A DNA stretch of 64,000 bases. It comes from Escherichia coli (GTDB taxonomy: Bacteria; Pseudomonadota; Gammaproteobacteria; Enterobacterales; Enterobacteriaceae). The stretch lies in NCBI RefSeq assembly GCF_016903815.1, contig NZ_CP069973.1. One strand, written 5' to 3'. Under the pieces are notes generated by a model. It did not search any database, was not told the origin of the DNA, and was given only the letters and a program-made list of their open reading frames with translations. Shown piece after piece: positions 36,631 to 38,682 of the stretch. Made by a program: the position numbers and the translations under genes. Positions within the stretch are counted from its first letter, which is position 1. Every line of letters starts with the position of its first letter.

Positions 36631-37248
36631 TTATTTAACAAAATACCGATAGTGCCCCACCATCCGCCAGCTAAACAGCACGTCTTCTTCCTGCGCGCCT
36701 GCGCCAATGTTATGTATCACCAGCGGCGTACCGTCGCGGGCAAAGCCATGTGACACCACCCCAATATGCGCCAGCCCGTTATCCAGTCGCCAGGAGACAA
36801 TATCGCCCGCTTGATAGTCACTGGGGTTCTTGCTGGTGGGGCGTGTTTTATCATGGCGGCTAAACCAGGTTTCCAGATTAGGCACCCGACGGTGATCGAT
36901 GTTGCTGTCCGGGCGCTTTAACTGCCATTTTTGCGGGTACTCAGCAAAATTCTTCGCCATATCTTCGTGAACCAGTTTCTGCAAATCGACCTTCTGGCTG
37001 CGCAAGGCGCGGATCACCACATCGGAACATACGCCGCGTTCTTGCGGGACATCACCGCCAGGATAGGTAAGCTGCACATACGCCGGATCGTAAAATAGCG
37101 TGCTGCCGATTTGCTGTCTGGCACCGTCTGCGATGGCAAGGTTGGTGTTGGCCTGGATTTGTACCACGGTTGGTGGAACGGCCGGAGATTTTAAGGAGTT
37201 GCTGGTAAACGCCGTTAGCAGGCTGACCAGCGCCAGTGAAGCTTTCAT
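36631..37248 (-). CDS. yijF: uncharacterised secreted protein YijF (DUF1287)
   Basis: 205-aa ORF with signal peptide MKASLALVSLLTAFTSNSLKSPA; matches YijF by length and context. Confidence 0.88.
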   Translation of the reverse strand: MKASLALVSLLTAFTSNSLKSPAVPPTVVQIQANTNLAIADGARQQIGSTLFYDPAYVQLTYPGGDVPQERGVCSDVVIRALRSQKVDLQKLVHEDMAKNFAEYPQKWQLKRPDSNIDHRRVPNLETWFSRHDKTRPTSKNPSDYQAGDIVSWRLDNGLAHIGVVSHGFARDGTPLVIHNIGAGAQEEDVLFSWRMVGHYRYFVK

Positions 37249-37395
37249 CTGGTTCGTCCGTGAAAATAAGAGTCACAGATTCGACCTTCCGGGCTAACGA
37301 TTGTTCTGTAGAGAAAATGTCCAGAAGCGGATAAAAAATTCCTGAACAACGTGGGAGTTTCAGACGGGTGATAACGTATAAAAAGTGCTCGAACA

Positions 37396-37500
37396 GTCCC
37401 CTCTCCCCTTTGGGGAGAGGGTTAGGGTGAGGGGAACAGGCCAGCTCCGGGGCGAATATTTACCCTCACTCCGACCCTCTCCCTGAAAGGGCGAGGGGGA
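37396..37500. repeat. cluster of GC-rich palindromic units in the yijF-gldA intergenic region
   Basis: Hairpin cctctcccc-ttt-ggggagagg (37399-37419), paired gtgaggg ... ccctcac about 30 nt apart, and ccctctccc ... gggcgaggggg; a separate perfect hairpin caaactcccgg-acaag-ccgggagtttg lies at 37544-37570 just downstream of the gldA stop. Confidence 0.5.
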
Positions 37501-37578
37501 AAAACATGCCCGCAGTGACGAGTGAGCCACTTTGCCTGCACTCTCAAACTCCCGGACAAGCCGGGAGTTTGGAGTAGG

Positions 37579-38682
37579 TTATTCCCACTCTTGCAGGAAA
37601 CGCTGACCGTACTGGTCGGCTACCAGCAGTGCAGCGTAAACCTGATCTGGCGTCGCGCCGCCAGGCATGTTGTGGATGGTTTCACCTTCTGCACATGCCG
37701 CTTCTGCCACAATTCGCATTTTCGCCGGGACATCTTCTTTAATATCCAGTTGAGCGAGAGTTATTGGCAAACCTACCGCATGGCTAAGTGCAGCTACGGT
37801 TTCGATTTCCTCCACCGGCGCATTTTCCAGAACCAGCTGCGTCAGCGTACCAAATGCCACTTTTTCACCGTGATAATAGTGATGTGCATCTGGAATAGCG
37901 GTCAGGCCGTTATGCACTGCGTGCGCCGCAGCCAGACCACCACTTTCAAAGCCTACACCGCTTAAATAGGTGTTCGCTTCAATCACGCGTTCCAGCGCAG
38001 GGGTTACTACATGCTGTTCGGCGGCAAGCATCGCTTTTTCGCCTTCTTCCAGCAGGGTGTTGTAGCACAGTTCAGCCAGTGCCAGCGCCGCCTGGGTGCA
38101 CTTGCCGCCCGCCATGGTGGTCGCGCCGCTACGAGAGCAGGCACGCGCTTCAAACCAGGTTGCCAGCGCATCGCCGATACCCGCCGCTAACAGACGCGCA
38201 GGTGCGCCAGCGACGATTTTGGTGTCGACAATGACCATATTCGGGTTATTTGGCAACATCAGATAGCGGTCAAATTCACCATCATCGGTGTAGATAACAG
38301 ACAATGCGCTGCACGGTGCGTCGGTAGAGGCGATAGTCGGTGCGATCGCTACCGGAACACCCATGAAATGTGCCAGTGCTTTGGCAGTATCGAGAGTTTT
38401 TCCGCCACCGATACCGAGAATTGCGCCACACTGCGCAGTCTCCGAGATGCCACGCAGACGGTCGATCTCATTTTGCGAACATTCACCGCCAAACGGCGCA
38501 ATTTCTACTACCAGTCCAGCATCTTTAAAGCTTTTCTCGACAGTGGATTGAGCAAAACCTAAAACAAATTTGTCACCCACCACTAACCAGCGTTCTGCCA
38601 GCGGCTTCAGGTATTCGCCCAGACGATTAATCACATCAGCGCCCTGGATGTATTTACCCGGTGATTGAATAATGCGGTCCAT
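37579..38682 (-). CDS. gldA: glycerol dehydrogenase
   Basis: 367-aa product starting [28 protein letters not shown] inside the listed ORF 37579..38721; recognised as GldA. Confidence 0.96.

Follow-up and report, generated by a model that had tools for sequence, protein, structure and literature searches.

What are the GC-rich palindromes that occupy the spacer between yijF and gldA in the Escherichia coli chromosome studied here, and do they serve the genes beside them? The question arose from a stretch of 64,000 nucleotides (64 kb), hereafter the window, in which a first-pass annotation made from the sequence alone had described a cluster of hairpin-forming units at 37396-37571. RefSeq annotates neither BoxC nor REP at the yijF-gldA spacer. 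The palindromes are an inverted pair of the described E. coli intergenic repeat known as BoxC, PIT or TMECO. The element is real but ordinary, in that the family has been described and the yijF-gldA copy itself catalogued. The whole explanation offered below combines this identity with a single replacement of a BIME and with the behaviour of a neutral or selfish structured repeat without dedicated function, and its probability is estimated at about 85%.

The yijF-gldA spacer and its hairpins

Gene calls were taken from the list of open reading frames and from the RefSeq annotation of E. coli strain 7/2, in which the spacer is identical, and of K-12. Both flanking genes lie on the minus strand: gldA, encoding glycerol dehydrogenase (37579-38682, 1104 nt), is the upstream gene and yijF, encoding a DUF1287 protein (36631-37248), its downstream neighbour. 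The spacer between them measures 330 bp (37249-37578), and the palindromic element is located within the 3′ untranslated region of gldA. Among 100,044 species genomes, no relatives of yijF were found from other Enterobacteriaceae; the nearest ones outside Escherichia belong to Acidobacteria, Chryseobacterium/Flavobacteria, Acinetobacter and Verrucomicrobia, with at most 60% identity, which suggests that the Escherichia lineage acquired yijF horizontally.

All four hairpins quoted in the first-pass annotation are present at the positions given there. The first (CCCTCTCCCC/GGGGAGAGGG, 37399-37408 and 37412-37421) has a perfect stem of 10 bp, while the palindrome GTGAGGG/CCCTCAC is a portion of a 39-nt inverted repeat (37398-37436 and 37460-37498) with 79% complementarity. 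The third (CCCTCTCCC/GGGCGAGGG, 37475-37483 and 37489-37497) forms 8 of 9 pairs, and the fourth, called H1 (CAAACTCCCGG/CCGGGAGTTTG, 37545-37555 and 37561-37571), is a perfect 11-bp stem located 7 nt past the gldA stop codon. Folding is far above that of shuffled sequence: the gldA-sense 3′ region reaches -110 kcal/mol as RNA, compared with -82 ± 5 in shuffles (z = -5.55), and the inverted pair folded as DNA gives a z-score of -4.84. The 22-mer core would be expected to occur by chance 0.01 times per 64-kb window.

The reading of these units changes in two respects. The first three are not separate hairpins, as had been proposed, but two inverted BoxC/TMECO copies forming one long inverted repeat. 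The original limits did enclose the hairpins but missed the left ~34 nt of the element (37365-37397) as well as a further hairpin with its U-tract, called H2 (37331-37360). Scans for other kinds of feature in the spacer gave little. A search against Rfam at a permissive threshold returned nothing at the gathering score, the best match (28.5 bits versus 83) being to eukaryotic miRNA models, and these sub-threshold matches are chance hairpin matches. No promoter-like site was found in the spacer, and the terminator scan called one weak terminator-like site inside the repeat, not above the expectation from shuffles.

An inverted pair of BoxC motifs

According to Holder et al. (2015, NAR 43:10126; PMC4666352), the sequence described in the 1990s as BoxC is the same as Hoyne and Maher’s ‘PIT element’ and as their own TMECO intrastrand triplex motif, and the family is covered by Bergler 1992, Bachellier 1999, Hoyne et al. 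2000 and Holder et al. 2015 (PMC4666352). Table 1 of Holder et al. contains 23 K-12 copies, none of them within the yijF-gldA spacer, and five K-12 loci carry close inverted pairs, each made of a type A motif with a TTA second loop and a type B motif with a CCG or TCG second loop (PMC4666352).

In the window, the composite element, in which ~35-45 bp of sequence specific to the family flank the pair of motifs on either side, spans 179 bp (37365-37543), as delimited by alignment with the K-12 spacer, where a 123-bp BIME takes its place, and with the copy in the gcvP-ygfF spacer. Its left extension (GGTGATAACGTATAAAAAGTGCTCGAACAGTC; 37365-37397, plus strand) is, from the family alignments, a diverged form of TGATGACAAAGTC.AAAAA..GYGCWCGNNCRGTCC. 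It is followed by a perfect type A motif, CCCTCTCCCC-TTT-GGGGAGAGGG-TTA-GGGTGAGGGG (37399-37434, plus strand), with 10/10 Watson-Crick pairs, 10/10 purine-motif triplets and a T-T-A second loop, which is the type A pattern of Holder et al. Table 1. The motif is identical to no. 514 of their Supplementary Table S8, located at 4612757-4612792 in E. coli 042, a position that falls in the 330-bp yijF-gldA spacer of that strain. Both the family and the yijF-gldA copy are therefore already in the literature.

A central spacer (AACAGGCCAGCTCCGGGGCGAATATTTA; 37435-37462) separates this motif from its partner; ~27 nt of it are kept in the pairs at gcvP-ygfF, sstT-alx and fepB-entC. The partner is a decayed type-B-like motif on the minus strand (37463-37497), CCCTCGCCC-TTTCA-GGGAGAGGG-TCG-GAGTGAGGG, with 8/9 pairs and 8/9 triplets, and its nearest K-12 relative is TMECO no. 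10 (CCCTCGCCCTTTCAGGGAGAGGGCCGGGGTGAGGGT). The right extension of the composite (37498-37543) aligns with the gcvP-ygfF copy only. The three-block design, with a pyrimidine block, a purine block and a second purine block, is present in both modules, and their arrangement as a close inverted pair of type A (+, 37399-37434) with type B-like (-, 37497-37463) follows the published rule for such pairs.

Within the type A motif, GGGGAGAGGGTTAGGGTGAGGGG (37412-37434) includes a TTAGGG unit and is the sole G4-type motif (four runs of at least three G, loops of 1-7 nt) found on the two strands of the 64-kb window. The REP consensus GCC(G/T)GATGCG(G/A)CG in inverted pairs has no match in the window spacer and is present in the K-12 allele, so that the earlier remark that the palindromes are not REP was correct. 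When the window was scanned for the left-end motif and for the REP consensus, only chance matches in coding sequence were obtained. A larger composite element containing BoxC was reportedly described by Bachellier et al. in 1999, and would fit the ~180-bp unit found at yijF-gldA.

Copies of the element in E. coli and beyond

The likeness to intergenic repeat families noticed in the first-pass annotation is borne out by a genome-wide search with blastn, in which relatives of the element were detected in 5424 of 5426 complete E. coli genomes, at a median of 16 places per genome (range 1-28). The nearest E. coli paralogue is the copy in the gcvP-ygfF spacer, which is 87.5% identical over 168 bp (37381-37548) and is too diverged to be a recent donor. 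Other copies lie in the spacers sstT-alx, fepB-entC, phnD-phnE, hrpB-mrcB, gntP-fimH, glnH-glnP, lptG-yjgR and zntA-tusA, and the position was intergenic in 21 of the 21 loci inspected. The 64-kb window contains no further copies.

A family alignment was made from 17 type A and 9 type B modules out of the 21 loci. The motif GYGCWCGNNCRGTCC precedes nearly all type A copies, and an additional left motif, TGATGACAAAGTC.AAAAA, is found in 9 of the 17. These extensions imply that the repeated unit is considerably longer than the 36-nt triplex motif.

Outside the E. coli chromosome, the family is essentially absent from phages, with 3 partial matches in 50,697 records. Two K-12 BoxC copies (yagA-yagE and xynR-argF) lie inside the annotated cryptic prophage CP4-6. 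Many of the matches in E. coli ‘plasmid’ records are in megabase-sized records resembling chromosomes, and those in small plasmids comprise the ~50-nt core only. Plasmids or chromids of Klebsiella (110 records), Azospirillum (40 records, one replicon having as many as 21 places), Aeromonas, Enterobacter and Citrobacter also carry this core, so that the BoxC motif reaches well beyond Escherichia and outside the Enterobacteriaceae.

Replacement of a BIME by BoxC

The K-12 spacer is 274 bp long. It matches the window without a difference over the first 116 bp and the last 35 bp (37249-37364 and 37544-37578), and its middle is unrelated: a classic two-REP BIME of 123 bp stands where the window carries the 179 bp of 37365-37543. 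The comparison with K-12 that the first-pass annotation had called for thus places the palindromes in a segment of two alternative contents between identical flanks. A K-12-type BIME spacer (at least 80% covered) was found in 4592 of the 5426 complete E. coli genomes and the BoxC spacer (same coverage) in 630. With the right extension as query (37496-37548), one match per genome was obtained in 640 of the 5426 genomes and nowhere else in E. coli; 634 of these 640 carriers are at least 99% identical in it. The BoxC allele is accordingly carried by ~12% of complete E. coli genomes, and the segment is missing from 85%.

Between the same two hairpins, H1 and H2, a BIME is also found in E. albertii, E. 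whittamii, Escherichia sp. E1V33 and a divergent ‘E. coli’ lineage. The presence of the BIME in outgroup Escherichia indicates that it is the ancestral state and that the BoxC allele is derived; BoxC has replaced the BIME at the same junctions. The carriers compared (the window, strains 7/2, 042 and KOr021) are 0-4 nt apart across the 330-bp spacer. Their yijF haplotypes differ by at most 1 nt among them and by 18-19 nt from K-12, and the gldA side is more mixed. This pattern fits a single origin of the BoxC allele, probably followed by recombination on the gldA side. The strong conservation among carriers would also fit purifying selection, and recent common descent explains it equally well. 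The search with the right extension gave only the yijF-gldA locus, so that no donor copy was found in E. coli, and none of the 640 carrier genomes contains a near-identical second copy. The replacement may have come about by insertion, gene conversion or import.

Two of the genomes with neither allele were inspected. In strain 99_0849 (NZ_CP074766.1), the K-12-type spacer match ends at position 190, and an IS110-like IS621 transposase gene lies inside the second REP of the BIME (locus positions 990-1110 onward). REP sequences are a known preferred target of IS621, and this insertion would fit that preference. In strain 7_12_15B (NZ_CP074849.1), dppA follows yijF instead of gldA (locus positions 801-1100), and homology to the K-12 spacer stops inside the BIME and runs on into other REP sequences, which suggests that recombination between REP/BIME copies caused a large rearrangement. 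In another genome, Escherichia sp. MOD1-EC7003 (positions 1-402), the BIME upstream of yijF is present twice in tandem, with the same TTTATCATCATTCTCAGGC after each copy. Only one hairpin, a hybrid with an H1-type loop and an H2-type U-tract, precedes the yijF promoter region, and the contig stops within the repeat.

A duplicated gldA terminator around the insert

H1 (37545-37571, minus strand) is locus-specific and lies outside the repeat. It folds at -19.2 kcal/mol (z = -3.8) and is identical in K-12, Escherichia sp. E1V33 and E. albertii. Because it falls within the shared right flank, H1 is no part of the variable element, and its inclusion in the palindrome cluster does not hold: the hairpin is unchanged beside the K-12 BIME and in E. 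albertii. The first-pass annotation was right, on the other hand, that this last hairpin lacks a U-tract and is no terminator by itself, since it is followed by AGAGTGCAGG and was not called by the terminator scan.

The second hairpin, H2 (37331-37360, minus strand), consists of AAACTCCC-ACGTTGTTC-AGGAATTT followed by TTTTTTAT and lies 210 bp downstream of H1, of which it is a direct repeat (76% over 25 nt, 37336-37360). In the window and in K-12, two stem pairs are lost and the stem reaches -3.7 kcal/mol, with the U6 tract present. In O157-type strains, two compensating changes restore an 8-bp stem (-9.1 kcal/mol), and in outgroups H2 is a canonical intrinsic terminator, AAACTCCCGCGTTAGCGGGAGTTTTTTAT, with -18.9 kcal/mol in a divergent Escherichia lineage. 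These comparisons point to H2 as the ancestral intrinsic terminator of gldA, decayed in E. coli, and to H1 as a conserved duplicate of the terminator stem without its U-tract, which is the better description of the origin of H1. Along the gldA strand, the order is gldA stop codon, H1, BIME or BoxC pair, H2 with its U-tract, and yijF promoter region; the inserted repeat sits inside the duplicated terminator.

Two outgroup lineages have an extra ~12 nt between H1 and the BIME (GACTGATGACAAG; GGGAGTTTGAGACTGATGACAAGCGC in gene orientation). This segment matches the left-end motif of BoxC, although neither lineage carries BoxC at the locus. It may be a remnant, or a motif common to both repeat families.

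Proposed origin and competing explanations

In the explanation favoured here, a BoxC element of ~180 bp would have replaced the two-REP BIME once, within E. coli, entering a hairpin-rich spacer by recombination or insertion promoted by structure, and would then have been inherited together with one yijF haplotype. When single-stranded, its DNA could form a hairpin, a triplex or an extended stem of cruciform type, and structures of these kinds may promote the local rearrangements from which such alleles arise. Once co-transcribed at the end of the gldA mRNA, the element would form an imperfect stem-loop of ~100 nt, which may incidentally block 3′ exonucleases, as the displaced REPs would have done. 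Otherwise the element would have no dedicated cellular function and would behave as a structured repeat, neutral or selfish, that settles in intergenic DNA rich in hairpins. Published work on the family is in keeping with such behaviour: BoxC copies have no bias in orientation, in position or distance relative to genes, or in gene class, and TM loci vary far more from strain to strain than control loci do (PMC4666352).

The first alternative turns the incidental effect into the reason for the presence of the repeat. The BoxC pair, like the BIME, would have been kept for an RNA stem-loop that shields the ptsA-fsaB-gldA transcript from 3′-5′ exonucleases or insulates gldA from yijF, and would act like a REP stabiliser without being REP. 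REPs are established mRNA stabilisers, as Newbury and Higgins reportedly found. The element occupies the exact position of the BIME, and being placed between the gldA stop codon and the terminator copy with the U-tract, it should be transcribed; the resulting hairpin of ~100 nt would be very stable, to judge from the fold of the 3′ region, and conservation among carriers is high. However, PIT/BoxC repeats were found to have neither promoter nor terminator activity and no effect on RNA polymerase (Holder et al. citing Hoyne and Maher; PMC4666352), the family shows no preferred orientation or position relative to genes, and the type B half of the pair is decaying. This reading is possible but improbable. 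An mRNA-stabilising or protein-binding role of the last hairpin, as put forward in the first-pass annotation, is likewise possible; lying 7 nt past the stop codon, H1 would need to be melted by the terminating ribosome.

A second alternative treats the composite as a MITE-like non-autonomous unit that inserts beside stem-loops and is moved in trans by a hairpin-recognising enzyme, the yijF-gldA copy then being a true transposition into the gldA terminator region. It draws on the copy number, which varies between strains from 1 to 28 places, on the presence/absence polymorphism at yijF-gldA, and on the neighbours of the repeat. In 7-8 of 9 copies, a small hand-collected set with no formal background model and for that reason a lead rather than a result, a locus-specific hairpin (terminator or REP) ends 0-18 nt before the TGATGACAAAGT left end. 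Such hairpins include the terminators of gcvP, gntP, lptG and alx, a REP at pstB-pstA and, in the window, H2. This adjacency is seen with neighbouring genes transcribed in either direction, which suggests a preference for stem-loops at the DNA level. The absence of a near-identical second copy in any of the 640 carrier genomes nevertheless argues against this reading, as does the lack of an attributable target-site duplication, the 25-nt repeat shared by H1 and H2 being already present in the BIME allele and in the outgroups. Phages, moreover, are almost devoid of the family, and no transposase is associated with it (PMC4666352). Such a transposition is doubtful. More speculative still is the notion that the composite is an unrecognised non-autonomous mobile element which integrates beside stem-loops and could displace BIMEs, perhaps through an enzyme that recognises hairpins in single-stranded DNA. 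If that were true, BIME and BoxC alleles with identical junctions would constitute a natural before/after pair that defines the ends of the element and its target.

It is very unlikely that the repeat is a regulator acting through non-B DNA, with the type A motif adopting a triplex, H-DNA or G-quadruplex structure in the cell and thereby affecting how gldA and yijF are replicated or transcribed. Its complementarity for a purine-motif triplex is perfect and it contains the only G4-type motif of the window. As an isolated strand, the motif forms a stable triplex in vitro, with a Tm of 70-82 °C depending on motif type, but no triplex was detected by DMS footprinting in vivo (PMC4666352). In duplex DNA, the BoxC motif is B-form, without triplex, and NMR on an oligonucleotide revealed a triplex and excluded a G-quadruplex (PMC4666352). 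Purine-motif triplexes do not form in RNA, and the family has no link to gene function or gene distance (PMC4666352).

A hidden gene for a small RNA or a small protein is barely conceivable, for although the region is highly structured and minus-strand ORFs of 45-56 aa cross the element, these ORFs cross a repeat found in both orientations at many loci, the segment is missing from most E. coli genomes, Rfam returned only sub-threshold chance matches and no promoter-like site was found.

None of the four alternatives is strongly supported. What the locus adds to the literature is modest: the replacement of a BIME by BoxC at identical junctions, its frequency of ~12%, its polarity, the decayed type B partner and the context of a duplicated terminator. 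It is a tidy case of one intergenic repeat family replacing another, with a terminator stem duplicated around the insert. As the locus shows, a GC-rich palindrome left unannotated in an E. coli spacer may belong to BoxC and not to REP, which is of little import beyond annotation. The locus could also serve as a test case for the movement of BoxC and BIMEs and for their effect on the stability of the 3′ end of the upstream mRNA.

Comparison with known repeats and terminators

The element resembles the BoxC/TMECO family in its type A motif, its type B partner, their inverted arrangement, its intergenic position and its multiple copies, and an exact copy is catalogued from E. coli 042. It differs in details. 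The type A copy of the window is perfect, without the usual T-to-G mismatch of the ‘A mm’ copies, whereas its type B partner carries an extra G-to-A change in the third block and is not among the copies that the 2015 catalogue counts. In K-12, the yijF-gldA locus is without BoxC.

The closest single parallel is the gcvP-ygfF pair of K-12 (TMECO no. 10 and 11), which has the same A-spacer-B architecture and the sole other example of the right extension of ~45 bp. The two are 12.5% different and lie in different genomic contexts, the gcvP-ygfF pair adjoining the gcvP terminator on its downstream side.

Compared with a Rho-independent terminator, H1 has the expected GC-rich stem of 11 bp and duplicates a terminator stem that is canonical in the outgroups, but it lacks the U-tract, which belongs to H2, whose stem has decayed in E. 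coli.

The comparison with REP/BIME is the one that the locus itself provides. The window allele has no REP consensus, and BoxC has no known association with RAYT, IHF or gyrase. The two nevertheless share the same slot between the hairpin close to the gldA stop codon and the terminator, and both are GC-rich palindromes that would be transcribed into the gldA 3′ untranslated region. A similar effect at the RNA level, as a barrier to exonucleases, is plausible for the element of the window.
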